From Eledone cirrhosa (lineage: Eukaryota): a stretch of 64,000 nt of DNA. Numbering within the stretch: the first letter of the stretch is position 1; each line of letters opens with the position of its first letter. Positions 3,309 to 39,329 of the stretch are shown here, in pieces. The notes under the pieces are model-generated. The model had not been told where the DNA came from. It saw nothing but the letters and a program-made list of their open reading frames with translations, and ran no database searches. A program made the translations under genes and the position numbers. The DNA lies in the NCBI GenBank assembly GCA_964016885.1, contig OZ024740.1, positions 245,706,001 through 245,770,000 of the forward strand. Reading direction: 5' to 3'.

Positions 3309-6300
3309 ATACAACAGTGAAAGACTATCTTGGGTCATACCACAGAGAACGACTGTCTTGGGTCATACAACAGTGAAAGACTGTCTTGGGTCATACAACA
3401 GAGAACAACTGTCTTGGGTCATACAACAGTGAAAGACTGTCTTGGGTCATACAACAGAGAACAACTGTCTTGGGTCATACAACAGTGAAAGACTATCTTG
3501 GGTCATACCACAGAGAACGACTGTCTTGGGTCATACAACAGTGAAAGACTGTCTTGGGTCATACAACAGTGAAAGACTGTCTTGGGTCATACAACAGAGA
3601 ACAACTGTCTTGGGTCATACAACAGTGAAAGACTGTCTTGGGTCATACAACAGAGAACAACTGTCTTGGGTCATACAACAGTGAAAGACTATCTTGGGTC
3701 ATACCACAGAGAACGACTGTCTTGGGTCATACAACAGTGAAAGACTGTCTTGGGTCATACAACAGAGAACAACTGTCTTGGGTTATACAACAGTGAAAGA
3801 CTGTCTTGGGTCATACAACAGTGAAAGACTGTCTTGGGTCATACAACAGTGAAAGACTATCTTGGGTCATACCACAGAGAACGACTGTCTTGGGTCATAC
3901 AACAGTGAAAGACTGTCTTGGGTCATACAACAGAGAACAACTGTCTTGGGTTATACAACAGTGAAAGACTGTCTTGGGTCATACAACAGTGAAAGACTGT
4001 CTTGGGTCATACAACAGAGAACAACTGTCTTGGATCATACAACAGTGAAAGACTGTCTTGGGTCATACAACAGTGAAAGACTGTCTTGGATCATACAACA
4101 GAGAACAACTGTCTTGGGTTTTACAACAGTGAAAGACTGTCTTGGGTCATACAACAGTGAAAGACTGTCTTGGGTCATACAACAGTGAAAGACTGTCTTG
4201 GATCATACAACAGAGAACAACTGTCTTGGGTTTTACAACAGTGAAAGACTGTCTTGGGTTATACAACAGTGAAAGACTATCTTGGGTTATACAACAGTGA
4301 AAGACTGTCTTGGATCATACAACAGTGAAAGACTGTCTTGGATCATACAACAGAGAACGACTGTCTTGGGTTTTACAACAGTGAAAGACTGTCTTGGGTC
4401 ATACAACAGTGAAAGACTGTCTTGGGTTATACAACAGTGAAAGACTGTCTGGGTTTTACAACAGTGAAAGACTGTCTTGGGTCATACAACAGTGAAAGAC
4501 TGTCTTGGGTCATACAACAGTGAAAGACTGTCTTGGGTCATACAACAGTGAAAGACTGTCTTGGATCATACAACAGTGAAAGACTATCTTGGGTCATACA
4601 ACAGTGAAAGACTGTCTTGGGTCATACAACAGTGAAAGACTCTCTTGGGTCATACAACAGTGAAAGACTCTCTTGGATCATACAACAGTGAAAGACTGTC
4701 TTGGATCATACAACAGTGAAAGACTATCTTGGGTCATACAACAGAGAACGACTGTCTTGGGTCATACAACAGTGAAAGACTGTCTTGGGTTATACAACAG
4801 TGAAAGACTGTCTTGGGTCATACAACAGTGAAAGACTGTCTTGGGTTATACAACAGTGAAAGACTGTCTGGGTTTTACAACAGTGAAAGACTGTCTTGGG
4901 TCATACAACAGTGAAAGACTGTCTTGGGTCATACAACAGTGAAAGACTGTCTTGGGTCATACAACAGTGAAAGACTGTCTTGGGTCATACAACAGTGAAA
5001 GACTCTCTTGGGTCATACAACAGTGAAAGACTGTCTTGGATCATACAACAGTGAAAGACTATCTTGGGTCATACAACAGTGAAAGACTCTCTTGGGTCAT
5101 ACAACAGTGAAAGACTGTCTTGGGTCATACAACAGAGATCGACTGTCTTGGGTCATACAACAGTGAAAGACTGTCTTGGGTCATACAACAGTGAAAGACT
5201 GTCTTGGGTCATACAACAGTGAAAGACTCTTTTGGGTCATACAACAGTGAAAGACTGTCTTGGATCATACAACAGTGAAAGACTGTCTTGGGTCATACAA
5301 CAGTGACAGACTATCTTGGGTCATACAACAGAGAACGACTGTCTTGGGTCATACAACAGTGAAAGACTGTCTTGGGTCATACAACAGTGAAAGACTGTCT
5401 TGGGTTATACAACAGTGAAAGACTGTCTTGGATCATACAACAGTGAAAGACTATCTTGGGTCATACAACAGGGAAAGACTGTCTTGGATCATACAACAGT
5501 GAAAGACTATCTTGGGTCATACAACAGGGAAAGACTGTCTTGGGTCATACAACAGTGAAAGACTGTCTTGGATCATACAACAGAGAACAACTGTCTTGGA
5601 TCATACAACAGTGAAAGACTGTCTTGGGTCATACAACAGTGAAAGACTGTCTTGGGTCATACAACAGTGAAAGACTATCTTGGGTCATACAACAGTGAAA
5701 GACTATCTTGGGTCATACAACAGGGAAAGACTGTCTTGGGTCATACAACAGTGAAAAACTGTCTTGGATCATACAACAGAGAACAACTGTCTTGGATCAT
5801 ACAACAGTGAAAGACTGTCTTGGGTCATACAACAGTGAAAGACTGTCTTGGGTCATACAACAGTGAAAGACTGTCTTGGATCATACAACAGTGAAAGACT
5901 ATCTTGGGTCATACAACAGTGAAAGACTATCTTGGGTCATACAACAGGGAAAGACTGTCTTGGGTCATACAACAGTGAAAGACTGTCTTGGATCATACAA
6001 CAGTGAAAGACTGTCTTGGGTCATACAACAGTGAAAGACTGTCTTGGGTTATACAACAGTGAAAGACTGTCTTGGGTCATACAACAGTGAAAGACTGTCT
6101 TGGGTCATACAACAGTGAAAGACTGTCTTGGATCATACAACCGAGAACGACTGTCTTGGGTCATACAACAGGGAAAGACTGTCTTGAGTCATACAACAGT
6201 GAAAGACTATCTTGGGTCATACAACAGTGAAAGACTGTCTTGGGTCATACAACAGTGAAAGACTGTCTTGGGTCATACAACAGTGAAAGACTATCTTGGG

Positions 6301-7357
6301 TCATACAACAGTGAAAGACTATCTTGGGTTATACAACAGTGAAAGACTGTCTTGGGTCATACAACAGTGAAAGACTGTCTTGGATCATACAACCGAGAAC
6401 GACTGTCTTGGGTCATACAACAGGGAAAGACTGTCTTGAGTCATACAACAGTGAAAGACTGTCTTGGGTCATACAACAGAGAACAACTGTCTTGGGTCAT
6501 ACAACAGTGAAAGACTGTCTTGGGTCATACAACAGTGAAAGACTGTCTTGGGTTATACAACAGTGAAAAACTGTCTGGGTTTTACAACAGTGAAAGACTG
6601 TCTTGGGTCATACAACAGTGAAAGACTGTCTTGGGTCATACAACAGTGAAAGACTGTCTTGGGTCATACAACAGAGAACGACTGTCTTGGGTCATACAAC
6701 AGTGAAAGACTGTCTTGGGTCATACAACAGTGAAAGACTGTCTTGGGTCATACAACAGTGAAAGACTCTTTTGGGTCATACAACAGTGAAAGACTGTCTT
6801 GGATCATACAACAGTGAAAGACTGTCTTGGGTTTTACAACAGTGAAAGACTGTCTTGGGTCATACAACAGTGAAAGACTGTCTTGGGTCATACAACAGTG
6901 AAAGACTGTCTTGGGTTATACAACAGTGAAAGACTGTCTTGGGTCATACAACAGTGAAAGACTGTCTTGGGTTATACAACAGTGAAAGACTATCTTGGGT
7001 CATACAACAGTGAAAGACTGTCTTGGGTCATACAACAGTGAAAGACTGTCTTGGGTCATACAACAGAGAAAGACTGTCTTGGGTTATACAACAGTGAAAG
7101 ACTATCTTGGGTCATACAACAGTGAAAGACTGTCTTGGGTCATACAACAGTGAAAGACTGTCTTGGGTCATACAACAGTGAAAGACTGTCTTGGGTCATA
7201 CAACAGTGAAAGACTGTCTTGGGTCATACAACAGTGAAAGACTGTCTTGGGTTATACAACAGTGAAAGACTATCTTGGGTCATACAACAGTGAAAGACTG
7301 TCTGGGTCATACAACAGTGAAAGACTGTCTTGGGTCATACAACAGTGAAAGACTATC
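3309..7357. repeat. 28-bp minisatellite array, about 145 units, intronic
   Basis: Unit GTCTTGGGTCATACAACAGTGAAAGACT with variants (AGAGAACAACT, GGATC, GGTTA and a 27-bp deletion form). No unique spacers. Confidence 0.98.
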
Positions 7358-24483: not shown

Positions 24484-25060
24484 TGGTGGCTGCCAACTCG
24501 TTTTCGAGTACGGCCACTACTTTATATCCATGTAGGAGAACCCCTACCGATGCGCTGAACGAGTGTGACTTTTTAGTCCAGCCAGCGACTTGAAAACTCT
24601 GGTACAAACACTACACTTGTGACAATTATTGACACATAGTGCTGGGCCCATGGTACCATGTGAGGACAAGTGCAGAGAGATCTCCAGATATAAAGCAATG
24701 CCTGTGCCGTGAAGCTTTTATAGTGAGCAAAGGCACTGCACAAAGCCAGTCCCACTCTCTCAACCAAGATGATATTTACCAAAAAGAAGAACAAGTCAAC
24801 ATCATTGGATACCATCAGGGTTGCAGGTGTTATATCAGAGTTTTCCTTATCCTAGAATTCTGCCTTGACAAAGGCTAAGGGGTCATCTCTCCCGGTGATT
24901 TTGGATGGCCATTGACTCTTAAGAGCTCCTTTGCCCTTTGACAGGTTTTGTTTTTAGTCCTGCAGGATGTCCAAAGTCACCCTCCTCACCAAGAAACCTT
25001 GGTGGGGTTGCCAGTTTAGTCGCCAACGACCCGACCATGAGACAGGTTGTACTGGGATAC
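24484..25060 (-). mobile_element. About 600-bp non-autonomous RTE-derived element, copy 1
   Basis: Near-identical to the copies at 28448, 29149 and 32159; GGAGAAGGAAAACTCTGA-type RTE 5' motif; [18 protein letters not shown]2H2 remnant at the 3' end; in (TA/TACA)n. Confidence 0.7.
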
Positions 25061-25396: not shown

Positions 25397-25443
<47 letters not shown>

Positions 25444-25723
25444 ATAAGAATCAAAGAACTGTTCAAAACATTATTGTGCTTACAGCTGTTTCCTCCAAAC
25501 CGAGGTTTGGATTCTTCGGAGCAATTTATTAATGCATGGACAGTTATATGACCTCCTTTTCAGCCGAGTTGATTGCTATGGCGCAGGGTCGGAGAGGTGC
25601 CCGACGTCTGGGCCGTCTGGACGTCGCCTTTTTGGACCTTGCAAAGGCCTTCGACACGGTTCCCCATCAGTTGGTGGCCGCCGGTATGGAGCGAAAGGGA
25701 TTTTGCGGTCACATCACTCTTCA

Positions 25724-26056
25724 GAAACCTATGTAGGCTCCACTTCTAACTGCTTCAAAATTAGATATAACTCGCACATCCACTCGTTCAAAAAGCACAG
25801 CCTAGCCAACTCCACCTCACTTTCTAGCTACATACACTATCTAAAATCTAAAAATAAACCATACACACTCAAATGGGAAGTGATAGGCAGCGCGACCTCG
25901 TACAAACCACCTAATAAATTCTGTAACCTCTGTATACTAGAGACACACAATATTATCTTCTCCAACCGTAACCTACTTAACAAAAAATCTGAGGTGTTTG
26001 CAACTTGCCAGCACCGCCTCAGACATTCCTTCCAAAACTTTAAGCCCTATATATAG
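25724..26056 (+). pseudogene. PLE GIY-YIG endonuclease, C-terminal fragment
   Basis: ETYVGSTSNCFKIRYNSHIHSF...LSSYIHYLK...LKWEVI...CNLCILE...LLNKKSEVFATCQH: YIG, R, E and N motifs plus CxxC, as in Penelope-like elements. Confidence 0.88.
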
Positions 26057-27499
26057 CAATGTCGGACTGGAACCTAACACCACATCTAGCATCAAACACC
26101 AGAGACACACCCTATACTACATACCCAACACTAGCTGATCCATTATAACACAAACAACGACATCCCTCTGGAACCCTTCGCAGGGAAAATACCCATTTAT
26201 ACCTCTACGGCAGGTGTGACAACATCCACCCACCTGGACGGCACTACACCGCTCTAAGGGTAATTTGAGCATGAATTGATCGGTTGGATGGTGTTGGGCA
26301 GAGGAAACACCTTCCTTAGACAGATGTAAAATGATTTAATCGAGTAGCGCTGTTGACCAGTAGGACCGGGCTGCTGAGCGCAGTGAGTGAATGCAATGCA
26401 ACTGCCGTGCGGGTTGTACGTATATGGATGATCTGACGGTCAGAGAGGGGTCGCGAGGACTGCGGATTGACCTTTGGCCTGCCTGGGGACGATTATCTTT
26501 CGACATCCAATGTAGCAAGCGATGACCCAGATCTTACCAGAGATCATTGGGTCCTGAAGCAATCCTGCAATCACCGCGCCTGGTCATATGAGCAGACTAC
26601 AACCACAGAGATCATTAATTTAGAATCCTCGCTCATCATCTATAATTTCCATTTGTAGCACCTTAAGATGGGTTAATCCACCTTAATAATAATATGATCA
26701 CCTTCAGCATAATTTAGTTAAACTACTCTATAGTTAGTACACTTTATGCTTTAAAAGTCTCTCTTGGAAGGTGCACCTCACCATAGAATTTAGGGTCTAT
26801 ATTGGGACACATTTTAATGGCTAGATATAGAAACCCCAGAGTTACCTCCCCGCATGCATTAACTCCCCTTAGCCACACACACACTTCCGGTATTCAATGG
26901 CGTCTCTCGAAACGTAACAACCTCCTGTATCGAACTAAAGAACACCAGACTACGATCTCTAACTGGATTGTCGTGGATTATGTGAAAGGCATATAATCGA
27001 AATATACACTCCCTTGACCATGAAAATGCCGAAGTACATGAATTACTTGACATCCCTGCGCTGTGCATCTCCAATACTTATAACACCTTTAATGCTTGCA
27101 CTATCTTTAATGCTTATAATATTTCTCCACACACAGACTATATCAATCATATAAAGACTTTGCCACCAGATCTACCAACCTAACACTCTTATTTACCTAC
27201 CTAAGTGCCTCTACCACACATATCTCTCTGCCACACTATATAAACAAGACGCACATGCGTGCCACACATATAACATTTGCACTATATAACCACTTATCTT
27301 CATGTTGTACTTTAACCTATATCTTTGATTTTTGATTGTACCTATTAATATAAATGTAATCTCGAAGTGTGTACTGCCACTCTAAATTCTGTAATGAATG
27401 TTGACCCACAATGTTTGAATATGTATCAATGTTTGAATATGTATTGGTATGTCTCTCGGCTGAAAAGGAGGTCATATAACTGTCCATGCATTAATAAAT

Positions 27500-27546
27500 T
27501 GCTCCGAAGAATCCAAACCTCGGTTTGGAGGAAACAGCTGTAAGCA
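27500..27546 (+). ncRNA. Minimal hammerhead ribozyme, U4C core variant (inverted copy at 25477-25523, minus strand)
   Basis: TGCT-CCGAAGA-a-TCCAAAC ctcg GTTTGGA-g-GAAA-CAGCTG-TA-AGCA; palindromic stem III. Confidence 0.65.
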
Positions 27547-27825
27547 CAATAATGTTTTGAACAGTTCTTTGATTCTTATACTTCATATAACTGCTCTGTA
27601 AATCATCTGATGTTTTTACATTGAGCTACTTAACTTACTGGTAATAAGGTAGTAATACATCACTGACTACCACTATTTAGGGTGTGTGTAAAATACTTAC
27701 AACTGCTTAAGGTTTTGTGTTTACATAACCATAAATAGTATAACTAATACTATATATATATATATATATATATACATACATACATATATATATATATACA
27801 TACATACATATATACATACATACAC

Positions 27826-28447: not shown

Positions 28448-29055
28448 TGGTGGATGCCAACTCGTTTTCGAGTATGGCCACTACTTTATATCCATGTAGG
28501 AGAACCCCTACCGATGCGCTGAACGAGTGTGACTTTTTAGTCCAGCCAGCGACTTAAAAACTGGCACAATCACTACACTTGTGACAATTATTGACACATA
28601 GTGTTGGGCCCATGGTACCACGTGATGACAAGTGCAGAGAGATCTCCAGATATAAAGCAATGCCTGTGCTGTGAAGCTTTTATAGTGAGCAAAGGCAATG
28701 CACAAAGCCAGTCCCACTCTCTTAACCAAGATGATATTTACCAAAAAGAAGAACAAGTCAACATCATTGGATACCATCAGGGTTGCAGGTGTTATATCAG
28801 AGTTTTCCTTCTCCTAGAATTCTGCCTTGACAAAGGCTAAGGGGTCATCTCTCCCGGTGATTTTAGATGGCCATTGACTCTTAAGAGCTCCTTTGCCCTT
28901 TTGACAGGTTTTGTTTTTAGTCCTGTAGGATGTCCAAAGTCACCCTCCTCACCAAGAAACCTTGGTGGGGTTGCCAGTTTAGTCGCCAACGACCCGACCA
29001 TGAGACAGGTTGTACTGGGATACATGTTACCAGTAGCACCAACTGGTGACCTGAC
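28448..29055 (-). mobile_element. Non-autonomous RTE-derived element, copy 2
   Basis: Direct sequence match to copy 1, with a longer 5' end. Confidence 0.7.
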
Positions 29056-29148: not shown

Positions 29149-29706
29149 TGGTGGCTGCCAACTCGTTTTCGAGTACGGCCACTACTTTATATCCATGTAG
29201 GAGAACCCCCACCAATGCGCTGAACGAGTGTGACTTCTTAGTCCAGCCAGCGACTTGAAAACTCTGGCACAAATACCCCACTTGTGACCATTATTGACAT
29301 ATAGTGCTGGGCCCATGGTACATGTGATGACAAGTGCAGAGATATTTCCAGATATAAAGCAATGCCTGTGCCGTGAAGCTTTTATAGTGAGCAAAGGCAC
29401 TGCACAAAGCCAGTCCCACTCTCTTAACCAAGATGATATTTACCAAAAAGAAGAACAAGTCAACATCATTGGATACCATCAGGGTTGCAGGTGTTATATC
29501 AGAGTTTTCCTTCTACTAGAATTCTGCCTTGACAAAGGCTAAGGGGTCATTTCTCCCTGTGATTTTGGATGGCCATTGACTCTTAAGAGCTCCTTTGCCC
29601 TTTGACAGGTCTTGTTTTTAGTCCTGCAGGATGTCCAAAGTCACCCTCCTCACCAAGAAACCTTGGTGGGGTTGCCAGTTTAGTCGCCAACGACCCGACC
29701 ATGAGA
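29149..29706 (-). mobile_element. Non-autonomous RTE-derived element, copy 3
   Basis: Direct sequence match; 5'-truncated. Confidence 0.7.
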
Positions 29707-29751
29707 TATATATATATATATATATATATACATACATACATATATATATAT

Positions 29752-29782
<31 letters not shown>

Positions 29783-29799
29783 CATACATATATGTATAT

Positions 29800-29888
<89 letters not shown>

Positions 29889-30132
29889 TATATATACATA
29901 CATACATATATATATATACATACATACATATATATATATACATACATATATATATATACATACATATGTATATATATACATATATACATATATATATACA
30001 TATATATGTGAATATAGACATAGAATATTCGAAAATATTCTGTATGTTTATAATAAACATTTTGAAGACCTAATCGCTATAGAATAGAATACGTCACGTA
30101 TTACAATTAGATTCTCGATAAAAGCAAGGGAA

Positions 30133-30174
30133 GTAATCTACGCGTTTCATTCTTGTTAGAATCATCAGGACCAC
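30133..30174 (-). ncRNA. Minimal type I hammerhead ribozyme
   Basis: Minus: GTGGTC-CTGATGA-TTCT aaca AGAA-t-GAAA-CGCG-TA-GATTAC. Confidence 0.75.
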
Positions 30175-30441
30175 ATATCCAGTGCTTTTATCGAGAATGA
30201 CACAGCTAGAGACTTATAGAATACTTAGCTGTGTACAGGAACTGATTTGAAAGAGCGGTTGCCGGTCCGGCAGAAATTAGAAATTGGAATAAATGCTCTG
30301 AAATAGCGATATATATGTGAATATAGACATAGAATATTCGAAAATATTCTGTATGTTTATAATAAACATTTTGAAGACCTAATCGCTATAGAATAGAATA
30401 CGTCACGTATTACAATTAGATTCTCGATAAAAGCAAGGGAA

Positions 30442-30484
30442 GTAATCTACGCGTTTCATTCTTGTTAGAAATCATCAGGACCAC
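30442..30484 (-). ncRNA. Minimal type I hammerhead ribozyme
   Basis: Minus: GTGGTC-CTGATGA-t-TTCT aaca AGAA-t-GAAA-CGCG-TA-GATTAC; 6-bp stem I, GUA triplet. Confidence 0.8.
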
Positions 30485-30631
30485 ATATCCAGTGCTTTTA
30501 TCGAGAATGACACAGCTAGAGACTTATAGAATACTTAGCTGTGTACAGGAACTGATTTGAAAGAGCGGTTGCCGGTCCGATATATATACATATACATATA
30601 CATACATATATATATATACATATATATATAT

Positions 30632-30690
<59 letters not shown>

Positions 30691-30833
30691 TATATACATA
30701 CACATATACATATATATATACATACATATATATATACATATATATATACATACATATATATATACATATATATATATACATATATATATATACATATATA
30801 TATATACATATATATATACATATATATATATAC

Positions 30834-30900
<67 letters not shown>

Positions 30901-30923
30901 CATACATATATATATATATATAT

Positions 30924-30954
<31 letters not shown>

Positions 30955-31148
30955 CATACATACATATATATATATATATCTCCACCACTCCCCTACACAC
31001 CCTTTGAACTCTCTTCCCACACACTTTTCACCTGAAGAAGGTCTTATGCCCGAAACGTCGTTCCCCACCACCACCCCACTCTCAAGAGCGTGAAATTAAT
31101 AAACATTTGTTGTACTGCCTCTCTGTTTTGTTCCTGTTCAAATTTTCC

Positions 31149-31228
<80 letters not shown>

Positions 31229-32158: not shown

Positions 32159-32762
32159 TGGTGGCTGCCAACTCGTTTTCGAGTACGGCCACTACTTTAT
32201 ATCCATGTAGGAGAACCCCTACCGATGCGCTGAACGAGTGACTTTTTAGTCCAGCCAGCGACTTGAAAACTCTGGTACAAACACTACACTTGTGACAATT
32301 ATTGACACATAGTGCTTTGCCTTTGGTACCATGTGACGACAAGTGCAGAGAGATCTCCAGATACAAAGCAATGCCTGTGCCGTGAAGCTTTTATAGTGAG
32401 CAAAGGCAATGCACAAAGCCAGTCCCACTCTCTTAACCAAGATGATATTTACCAAAAAGAAGAACAAGTCAACATCATTGGATACCATCAGGGTTGCAGG
32501 TGTTATATCAGAGTTTTCCTTCTCCTAGAATTCTGCCTTGACAAAGGCTAAGGGGTCATCTCTCCCACTGATTTTGGATGGCCATTGACTCTTAAGAGCT
32601 CCTTTGCCCTTTGACAGGTTTTGTTTTTAGTCCTGCAGGATGTCCAAAGTCACCCTCCTCACCAAGAAACCTTGGTGGGGTTGCCAGTTTAGTCGCCAAC
32701 GACCCGACCATGAGACAGGTTGTACTGGGATACATGTTACCAGTAGCACCAAGTGGTGACCT

Positions 32763-36405: not shown

Positions 36406-36480
36406 GTATATATATATATATACATATGTATATATATATAATATAACTTAGAGTTTACACTCAATGGGATCATTTACAAT
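35261..36480 (-). mobile_element. PLE-like pseudo-LTR remnant
   Basis: About 220-bp direct repeat (about 35500-35720 and 36065-36285), a short inverted copy across (TA)n (about 36242-36290 vs 36430-36480), and a hammerhead motif. Confidence 0.6.
35422..35460 (-). ncRNA. Minimal (39-nt) hammerhead ribozyme
   Basis: Minus: TGAAC-CTGAAGA-t-TGC gaaa GCA-t-GAAA-GTAC-TT-GTTCA; perfect 5-bp stem I, GNRA-capped stem II, palindromic stem III. Confidence 0.8.
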
Positions 36481-39329
36481 GATCGCGCTGGCAGAAGAAA
36501 GGGCGGAACTGCCATTTATGTCCATAATTCTTTCTCAACAGAGGCTATGAACATATTCACTAATGGATACTGTGAGGCAGTCACTGTATTCAGTCAAACC
36601 AACAACCTATTAGTAGTTGGGCTCTATAGGCCACCCCAAACGCCTGTACCATGCTTCAAGGAATGCCTCAACAGCATAAAGTGTTTCATCCAAGAGTGTC
36701 ACCCTGACAACATCTTAATGATGGGGGACTTCAACCTCCCCGGAGTTGACTGGTCCACAAACACCCTGCCACCAGGTTCTTCTGCCTCAACCTCTGACAG
36801 GGAAGCTGTGGAATCGCTTCTTGACTTCATGGATGATTTCTTCCTATCCCAACTAGTGCTCGAACCAACGAGGTGCCACAAAAACGTCCTAGACTTAATT
36901 TTCAGCAATCACACTGACAATATCCACAATATTGCAGTGGAGAAAACTCTACTCTCTGATCATGACATGGTTCTCTGTGATCTGAGATTCCACCGTCCAA
37001 TATACAAACCCAATGTCATTTCTCCTGTCCATCCGTTTGACGCTATGGATTTCCACAATGCAAACTGGGAAGCGATCAGTCATGATCTTGCACATGTCGA
37101 CTGGTCCTTCACGCACACTCATACACCCACTAACATCAAAAAGTCCTGGCAGACATTTGTGGACACTGTTACAAACATATGTGCTAAACACACCCCATTA
37201 AGAACTATAAACAAATCTAAGAGCAGAATCCCTAGAAATAGAAAAACGCTCATCAGAAAAATTAAGAGAACGAACAAAAAAATCAACAATCTGAAATACT
37301 GTCAGCAGCAACACATCAACTTGACTGCCATTTCATCACTAGAGATTAAAAAACATAACCTCCAAAACAACATAATGTCCCTCATCAACAATCAGAGAAG
37401 AGCTGAAGAGGCCTGGGCCATTGAGAAGATCAAACTCAATCCCAAAGTGTTCTTTTCATTTGCAAAAAAACACAAAATCACTGGCTCTACTGTTGGCCCT
37501 CTAATTGATGAAAATGGCACTCTTCAAGACAATGCTAAAACCATGGGTGAGATACTGCAGAAACAATACTGCTCTGTTTTCAGCAATCCTGATATGGCCG
37601 ATCTGGGCTGTATCGGCGATGTTACTCCCCATTACACCTTATCGGACATAACGTTTGGCGCCCCTGATGTCTTGGCGGCAATAAAGGAAATCAAGCATAA
37701 TTCAGCAGTAGGTCCCGATAGGTTCCCTGCTTGTGTCTTGAAGGCGTGTCAACACCAACTTGCTTCTCCTCTTGCCAATCTGTGGCGGAACTCACTGGAT
37801 GCTGGATATGTGCCAGAAAACCTTCTATCCCAGTCTGTTGTCCCAGTTTTCAAAAAGGGAAACAAATCCCTTGCCGTGAATTACCGTCCAATCTCACTCA
37901 CCTCTCATATCATTAAGGTATTTGAGCGAGTGGTGAGATCGCGAATGACCCACTTCCTTGAGAGTAACAATATGCTGAACTCCAACCAGCATGGATTCCG
38001 TAATGGAAGGGATTGCCTGACGCAACTACTGCATCACTTTGATGACATTTTGAGAGCCTTGGGAGAGGGTTCCAACACTGATGTTATCTACCTTGATTTC
38101 AGCAAGGCCTTTGACAGGGTTGTTCATAACATTCTACTGAGAAAGCTGTCCAATATTGGTGTCACTGGAAAGCTGCTGCAGTGGATCAAGAGCTTCCTGT
38201 CAAACAGAACCCAACATGTTGTAGTTGAGGGAGTCAAATCAAGCCCAGCCAAAGTCAGTAGTGGAGTCCCACAAGGCACTGTGTTGGGCCCACTTCTCTT
38301 CATCATCTATATTAATGACATCACTGACATCATCAAACACAGCAACATTAAAATTTTCGCTGATGATTCCAAGCTCCAAAAGGTCATCAATGGCGTGGAT
38401 GACCGGATAAGCCTTCAGTCAGACCTACTGGCTGTTACCCAATGGGCAGAAAAGAACAACATGTTACTGAACGAAGACAAATTCGAACTGATCCACTTTG
38501 GAAAAGAGGATGCTCTGAAACTCCCGTACTCCCTTCCCTCCGGGGAAACTCTCGTGGCATCTAACAACATCAGAGACTTGGGAGTAACCGTGGACAGCAA
38601 CATAAGCTGGACCACGCATATAAGCAGCAAAATTGACATGGCCCGCAGAATGTGTTCCTGGATCCTCAGAACCTTCCAGTCGAGAGATTCCCGCACCATT
38701 ATCCTTCTCTTCTCTACTTTCGCCCGACCACACCTTGAATACTGTTGTCCACTGTGGTCTCCCCACACGAAACAAAGTATCATGAAACTTGAAGCTCCTC
38801 AAAGGGCAATCACGAAAAAGATAGATGGCATGTCAGACCTTGACTACTGGGGTCGATTGGAAAACCTGAAACTTTACTCACTCCAACGTCGCCGTGAGCG
38901 TTATATTATCTGCATGATGTGGAAAATGTTCCATCATCACTGCCCAAATGATGTTGGCATCGCCTTCAAGATACACCCAAGGCTTGGGCCCCGTGCTATC
39001 CGTCCCATTCAAAAATCTAAATCGCAACTCATAACAACAATACGGCACAATTATTTCACCTCAATCGGCCCTGCTCTCTTCAACATCACACCAGGACACG
39101 TCAAAACAGAAACTGACCACACAAAATTCAAGAAGTCTTTGGACAAATTCCTCCAAGTAATCCCGGACAAACCACCCACACCCGGATATGTCTCCGCAAA
39201 CAGTAATTCTCTTCTCGAATGGGCCATGGTGCCCAAATCCTGAATTGAAAGACTTCGCCAGGTGGTGCTATTAAGTTAGACATGGCCTGGGCCAATACTG
39301 GCCAAAACATTTCAAAGTTATTCAAAGTT

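Follow-up and report, generated by a model that had tools for sequence, protein, structure and literature searches.

A one-armed, damaged copy of a young hammerhead repeat in a (TA)n microsatellite, from a family that is probably a non-LTR retrozyme and whose insertions bear a PLE footprint

The window, by which we mean the whole stretch of 64,000 nucleotides that was analyzed, carries on its minus strand, at 30000..30579, a single retrozyme arm of 1.87 units, as delimited by self-alignment of the window. The two units (30000-30308 and 30309-30579) align with zero mismatches and one 1-nt gap, and each holds a type I hammerhead motif, with the predicted cuts 309 nt apart, in agreement with an earlier note on this DNA that had described two near-identical minus-strand hammerhead units. 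We number the unit from the base after the predicted cut; the cut-to-cut monomer (30139..30447, minus strand) is 309 nt long here compared to 310 nt in the family. The arm lies in its target, a (TA/CATA)n microsatellite that forms the left flank at 29706..30007 and the right flank at 30580..30980. Its 3' end, the "short" site at unit position 139, is joined to (TA)n, its 5' break at unit position 179 is fused straight onto (TA)n, and the second, long-end arm that is usual in the family is missing. Both window units share a C>T change at unit position 203 that is absent from the sampled loci. The earlier observation that the units lack an open reading frame was borne out: the frame listing covered stop-to-stop frames of 120 aa or more, zero of these lie inside the units, and the frames that overlap the units are microsatellite.

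An internal TA tract at unit positions 127-139 (30309..30321, minus strand) corresponds to the "short" arm end and may act as a priming site through 8 to 10 nt of microhomology with the (TA)n target. A 35-nt "tail" spans unit positions 131-165 (30283..30317, minus strand), and position 165, at window position 30283, is the fixed "long" arm end of the family. On the same strand, a 16-nt motif at 30252..30267, with a second copy at 30562-30577, is identical in an older sister family and is a candidate cis element for reverse transcriptase or transcription. In addition, the near-palindrome TACGTCACGTA lies in a small hairpin at 30090-30100 and 30399-30409 (unit positions 39-49). This near-palindrome, which we take to resemble a CRE/ATF site, is a candidate promoter element and has no counterpart in the sister family.

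The surrounding sequence contains several other repeats. The segment at 30981-31152 is the 3' end of an abundant (TA)n-inserted family with a hammerhead-like core and 1,732 search candidates; this family has longer CA-rich copies elsewhere and is not homologous to the retrozyme. An element of ~550 nt occurs four times by microsatellites (24485-25040, ~28450-29005, 29150-29705, and 32160-32715), with two of the copies in tandem, 702 nt apart. At 36442-39243, there is an uninterrupted 933-aa frame with AP-endonuclease and reverse transcriptase domains (Pfam RVT_1, E value of 1.9e-30), which identify it as a putative young non-LTR retrotransposon, and 3309-7354 is occupied by ~145 copies of a 28-bp minisatellite with 92% matches.

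The upstream type I hammerhead motif (30420..30508, minus strand), recognized by its motif and pairing, has an extended stem I and a complete core consisting of CUGAUGA, a U.U at the base of stem II, GAAA, ACGCGU, and GUA, with the predicted cut between 30448 and 30447. The downstream motif (30111..30198, minus strand), with a predicted cut between 30139 and 30138, is missing one base at the junction of the core and stem II and is probably impaired. CUGAUGA is found at 30472-30478 and 30162-30168, and stem I is formed in each unit by GTGGTC/GATTAC, 6 bp that include two G.U pairs. Two further elements described earlier were found in both units, namely, the 16-bp inverted repeat (30493-30508/30420-30435 and 30183-30198/30111-30126), which folds through two small internal loops as a distal extension of stem I, and the palindromic stem III, whose ACGCGU lies at 30449-30454 and 30140-30145. 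Rfam gave zero matches in the window at the gathering score; in an E-value scan, the intact upstream copy matched HH9 weakly (17.7 bits, E value of 0.34), and the other hits were microsatellite noise. The identification as a hammerhead is thus based on motif, pairing, and variation and not on Rfam. Stem III consists of one base pair plus a tetraloop, and in 37 of 47 loci position 10.1 is a U, which gives the U.U pair at the bottom of stem II, from which it follows that cutting is probably weak.

Folding with ViennaRNA, in which tertiary contacts are outside the model, placed the double-hammerhead fold 3.7 to 5.7 kcal/mol above the minimum, with a pairing probability of ~0. Since this fold is not favored, cleavage of a dimer is possible but unsupported. 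The circular monomer was predicted to be 60% paired, with a z score of -4.0 to -4.3 compared to 100 dinucleotide shuffles; as scores for the reverse strand are similar, the result is informative about hairpins and not about the strand. Across subfamilies, N7 is U, A, or C and loop II is variable, and the changes in stem I turn G.U into A-U or A-U into G.U, with the pairs kept. Subfamily-wide variants lie mostly in the ribozyme region, and fixed core positions are changed only in single units. This pattern, with subfamily variation in N7, loop II, and stem I but not in the fixed core, suggests to us that the family ribozyme is under selection. There are also 311-nt subfamilies that have an extra base two positions past the cut site and a remodeled stem I (L081, L088, L112, L118, L122, L132, and L140).

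The host genome of the window is 3.0 Gb in size. Genome-wide, a 26-nt core motif of the unit has 14,896 exact matches, compared to 0 for the reversed control, showing that the unit is not a chance pattern. In the best 40 of 191 candidates from a DNA search, we found 309 matches that are ~99% identical and arranged in tandem with a 310-nt period; the matches are spread over many contigs, and arms reach more than 20 units. Exact counts of ends fused to (TA)n, taken on both strands, were 1,006 for the long end and 1,164 for the short end (controls, 0), and the 3' ends of the arrays lie in (TA)n in the sampled loci. Because these 3' ends run into microsatellite, the family is not the terminus of a coding PLE, and the unit itself is not an autonomous PLE, as it contains no open reading frame for reverse transcriptase plus GIY-YIG. 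The sampled genomic homologues, which the earlier note had proposed to check, include tandem copies without a coding PLE and are not merely PLE termini. Every sequence-level feature tested was found (tandem, noncoding, dispersed, and self-paired), so that at this level of evidence we class the family as a non-LTR retrozyme whose insertions bear the footprint of a PLE. The earlier retrozyme claim therefore holds for the family, which is tandem, noncoding, and dispersed, and is weak for the locus. For the locus itself, the likely reading is a one-armed, damaged copy of a young hammerhead repeat that would be a non-LTR retrozyme with circles copied by a PLE. Among the contigs of sequencing run X1, many of high depth have TA junctions. 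Runs with other organism codes (X4, X5, and X6) each contain one 340-nt contig (310 + 30) at a depth of 10 to 15; contamination, diet, a related species, and a circle are indistinguishable as its source, and we dropped these contigs as evidence of circles, since a collapsed tandem array looks alike.

The 309-nt spacing in the window is a departure from the family unit of 310 nt, as 169 of 171 cut-to-cut units in 20 fetched loci are at least 310 nt long, and it arises because the downstream ribozyme (30139-30168) is without one base. The one-base-short core occurs genome-wide in 9 scattered single units and never in a run, indicating that this form has not spread. The sequence fits equally a real deletion and an assembly error in a short homopolymer, and the 309-nt form thus appears to be a local dead end or an assembly slip. 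This bears on the proposal that a read-through transcript of the window dimer forms a double hammerhead and frees a 309-nt monomer or circle. The two sites are indeed 309 nt apart and share the palindrome ACGCGU, a nested double fold of the dimer can be drawn at +3.9 kcal/mol, and axolotl ribozymes with a similar helix III cut better as dimers (PMC7229834). However, one core is short of a base, the short form is never arrayed, and the probability of the double fold is near 0 in the model; with one core damaged, at most one cut would be expected from the dimer, whichever fold it adopts. The window locus probably does not release a monomer itself, and the excision of a monomer of ~309 nt through a double hammerhead, a weak part of the earlier account, is in our judgment quite unlikely here.

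What the earlier reading overlooked is the most informative feature, a two-armed insertion with two fixed ends, of which the window keeps one arm. Two divergent arrays between (TA)n tracts were found at 17 of 20 loci chosen by BLAST, and the remaining three were one-armed (two loci) or broken by an N gap. The 17 two-armed loci were picked without regard to their ends, and all of them (17/17) have one end at 165-170 and the other at 130 or 139, a pairing that would arise about 1 time in 100,000 if the ends were independent. A second set, consisting of the first 60 long ends in order on contig C1, was chosen by the long end and comes from a single chromosome. In this set, 52 of 60 loci show both ends and 0 have two long ends; the partner arm ends at 118-139 by k-mer mapping and never at 165 (52/52), with the k-mer ends below 130 representing 130/139 ends with nearby variants. 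The other eight loci comprised two two-armed loci with the far end outside, two that were off the stretch, one with an N gap, and three that were one-armed. Thus, an inverted, head-to-head, 5'-truncated copy is present at 17 of 20 loci in one set and at least 54 of 60 in the other and is absent at the window locus. The long and short ends are 26 to 35 nt apart, one per arm, and the short site can anneal to the target over 8 to 10 nt, compared to a homology of at most 2 nt for the long site.

We also compared the inner ends of the arms. The 53 central junctions include 23 with an overlap, 7 that are blunt, and 23 with a few extra bases, and the 106 5' breakpoints are evenly distributed over the unit (chi-square, P = 0.46), without clustering at the cut site. 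The median arm length was 4.8 units for long-end arms and 2.9 units for short-end arms (P = 0.013, with some arms clipped by the stretch), and either arm may be the longer one at a given locus. Formation of the second arm by a simple fold-back was ruled out, as the two arms break at unrelated positions in the 60-locus set. A preferred stop at unit position 179, which had been considered for the window, L038, and L042, was dropped for lack of recurrence in the same set. Target-site duplications are unreadable within (TA)n.

Variation among units points to a single template per insertion. The haplotype analysis covered the 51 of 60 C1 loci that have complete units, with 397 units. Both arms have the same subfamily haplotype at 34 of 35 two-armed loci, compared to 9.5% between loci; an earlier, stricter count with another anchor gave matching arms at 29 of 33 loci, compared to 8.6%. 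A private change, absent from all other sampled loci, is present in every unit at 8 of the 39 loci with at least three units, and in both arms at 6 of them, whereas a private change that fills only one multi-unit arm was seen at no locus. Single-unit changes amount to 0.14 per unit (56 in 397 units), about the rate of private fixed changes per locus, which fits a bottleneck of one monomer. Nearly all unit junctions at the cut site are exact, and the divergence within loci is 0.05% per base. This one-monomer bottleneck, together with the exact junctions, the unbounded arms, and the absence of a stop at the cut site, favors a closed circle, and we regard a monomeric circle as the probable template. 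Periodic blocks of shared variants are seen in the three longest arrays (L092, L093, and L115), where they suggest some local expansion, and a haplotype switch occurs inside one insertion at L102 and L129, near the central junction in L129, possibly from a jump between two template RNAs. The later expansion in three arrays and the two loci with a haplotype switch count against the circle.

The same end rule is seen in PLEs of this genome. A two-armed, 5'-truncated insertion of a young Hydra-type PLE lies in the window at 25441..27751 on the plus strand (boundaries set by eye and given for context only) and follows the same short-end/long-end rule. This insertion also has a hammerhead-like motif with the core CCGAAGA and ~130 nt of unrelated sequence at its central junction. 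Traced from a 3' fragment in the window, the young PLE family has an intact 832-aa frame and 11 copies that are a median of 0.5% apart. The protein has no significant match in Pfam or PDB, so its assignment to the Hydra clade rests on its motifs (RWR, DKT, CxCX5C, CxxC, CxH, and LYRDD), which match the published description of that clade (PMC8557442), and not on a tree. We sampled 20 loci of this family, mostly chosen as opposite-strand pairs, and all 17 loci in which both ends were scored (17/17) have one short end and one long end, ~166 nt further. The median difference between arms in this family is 1 base in 1,450 for arms of the same locus, compared to 16 for different loci. A second Hydra-type locus (L082) follows the same rule with a 95-nt offset.

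The short ends of the retrozyme and the Hydra-type PLE are alike by eye (..TATATT(T)CA and then TA), with alignment scores that are not significant; shuffle tests of the unit against the termini of two Hydra-type families found no significant similarity (P = 0.16 to 0.86), and local alignment to the 3' regions of 14 PLE fragments found nothing convincing. In a pLTR-like family, the hammerhead core and the U.U in stem II resemble those of the retrozyme (P = 0.003, partly due to the shared core motif), and this family is a possible source of the retrozyme ribozyme. The pLTR-like family is also found in short head-to-head (TA)n insertions (L180:271, L182, L052:2574, L186, L090, L102, L126, and L139).

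The older sister retrozyme family has a unit of ~321 nt, 1,713 motif matches, and ~77% identity to the window family over positions 59-235, and many of the 30 loci sampled from it, several of which overlap, have the same two-ended architecture. Examples of sister insertions are L138:3216-4019, L117:7015-7500, and L191-L220. Its ribozyme is complete and differs in having UUGAUAA (a U3-A8 core), GUC, and a two-sided change in stem II. A U3-A8 core is present in active natural hammerhead ribozymes. The pairing of C3 with G8 is backed by a rescue experiment (PMC11167929). This comparison of families indicates that the ribozyme was replaced by another complete one, with the priming region conserved.

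Published PLE insertions have an inverted 5'-truncated copy, a tail of 30 to 40 bp at one end, and (TA)n targets (PMC8557442 and PMC3846280), and the Hydra clade inserts in (TA)n (PMC8557442). Purified PLE protein has been shown to nick both strands and to extend them, treating the two alike, and two internal starts bound the tail (PMC11167929). One short and one long end, an inverted truncated arm, and insertion in (TA)n are the signature of the PLE inverted copy plus tail, and it is very likely, as judged from this footprint, that a PLE mobilizes the family. In the mechanism that we propose, arrays would be transcribed and the hammerhead would cut after GUA, perhaps aided by the pairing of two ACGCGU palindromes or by a protein, and a host ligase would close circles of 310 nt. 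The PLE endonuclease/reverse transcriptase would then nick both (TA)n strands; at one DNA end, priming would occur at position 165, a site set by the protein where homology amounts to at most 2 nt, and the other end would anneal to the AUAUAUAU tract of the RNA at 130-139. Synthesis of both cDNAs would proceed around one shared circle, for anything from 0.1 to more than 20 turns, and would end at random points, after which end-joining would link the two cDNAs in the middle of the insertion. At the window locus, the long-end arm would have been lost or never made, and one ribozyme would have lost a base. On balance, we lean toward the view that each insertion is one 310-nt circle copied simultaneously by two PLE reverse transcriptases, working from opposite ends of the cut (TA)n target, from fixed, non-interchangeable starts.

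PLE twin priming might instead use as the template an uncut linear multimer transcribed from an older array, in which case the hammerhead would be a passenger and circles would have no part in the spread. Such a transcript would likewise account for a single haplotype in each insertion, for the exact unit junctions, and for the lack of clustering at the cut site. The autonomous PLE, which needs no circle, also has matching arms, and uncut RNA is the main substrate for insertion by the purified PLE (PMC11167929). The ribozyme was dispensable in that one assay, which by analogy would count against the proposal of a circle copied by a PLE. However, a linear multimer would not place a new mutation in every unit of both arms, a pattern found at 6 two-armed loci. 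It also predicts recurring single-unit variants, seen for 1 of 55 (weak evidence, from the 51 loci sampled), and it leaves unexplained both the spared core with its variable N7 and the different, complete ribozyme of the sister family. We consider this template unlikely. Alternatively, a short insertion of at most one unit per arm, copied from a linear monomer with template jumps, might later have been both expanded and homogenized at the DNA level, through unequal crossing-over together with arm-to-arm conversion. The periodic variant blocks in the three longest arrays fit this route, and local amplification is the model favored in a recent preprint (bioRxiv 10.64898/2026.07.22.740005). However, outside the two switch loci, there are 56 single-unit variants compared to 7 block variants, the latter in three arrays, which argues that most of the array length dates from birth. 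The nearly invariable exactness of the unit junctions at the cut site also speaks against later expansion, and the low divergence within loci implies little time for homogenization. We find expansion of this kind very improbable as the origin of the arrays.

If each insertion is one circle copied from two fixed starts, the family would prove at the genomic level that a PLE reverse transcribes an animal retrozyme by the rolling-circle route, and asymmetric twin priming on a single RNA would account for the "inverted copy plus tail" of PLEs. This bears on two linked questions, namely, which enzyme moves animal retrozymes and whether it copies the circle, and how the inverted copy and one-sided tail of PLEs originate. 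The family comprises more than 1,000 insertions of very recent origin, in which the ends and private mutations serve much as single-molecule records would, and its 310-nt unit, with two defined start sites, is a minimal substrate suited to the published PLE assay in vitro. Tandem copies of a small RNA circle written into (TA)n would also bear on the birth of satellites.

The family resembles metazoan non-LTR retrozymes in having tandem noncoding units (within a range of 150 to 450 nt), a type I hammerhead in each, low GC content, a predicted circle that is self-paired, thousands of copies, and co-occurring PLEs. Its helix III, with one pair and a palindromic tetraloop, is like that of HHR_Amex1 of the axolotl, and the U.U at the base of helix II is like that of HHR_Amex2 (PMC7229834). 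For coral, mussel, and axolotl retrozymes, cleavage, circles, and ligation have been demonstrated (PMC7229834, Cervera and de la Pena 2020). The same paper proposes that circles are converted into tandem cDNA by a reverse transcriptase, for which PLEs are considered a strong candidate. In their preprint, Li, Clavereau and Pollet (bioRxiv 10.64898/2026.07.22.740005) connect retrozymes with PLEs through their co-occurrence and through pLTR similarity; 8 of 9 predicted Xenopus dimers in that study were uncut in vitro. The two-armed head-to-head insertions, fixed ends, and (TA)n targeting seen here set the family apart from the published accounts of metazoan retrozymes, as far as their main texts go; the words "inverted" and "rolling" are absent from the main text of PMC7229834, and a literature search outside supplements and most subscription papers found no description of two-armed retrozyme insertions.

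The family also resembles EN+ PLEs, especially those of the Hydra clade, in its inverted truncated copy, one-sided tail, two internal starts, (TA)n targets, and type I hammerhead near the end. It differs from them in that the retrozyme unit has no coding frame and the arms are long runs of identical monomers; moreover, published descriptions call the PLE tail optional or "often at one end," and in the retrozyme one end of each kind is near obligate. In L1 twin priming, the two target ends prime the same RNA, which gives a 5' inversion and a central junction with overlaps and small insertions; the two pieces derive from different portions of a linear RNA, and the position of the second site varies. 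The retrozyme insertions are similar in that both target ends would prime one RNA and the central junction has overlaps or insertions, but both of their arms consist of many copies of one sequence, and the two starts are fixed. Compared to the double hammerheads of the amphibian satellite type, the palindrome for an intermolecular helix III is present here, with the double fold lying above the minimum by the margin given above. The class of element is a known one, and the new part is the near-obligate two-ended insertion from one template.
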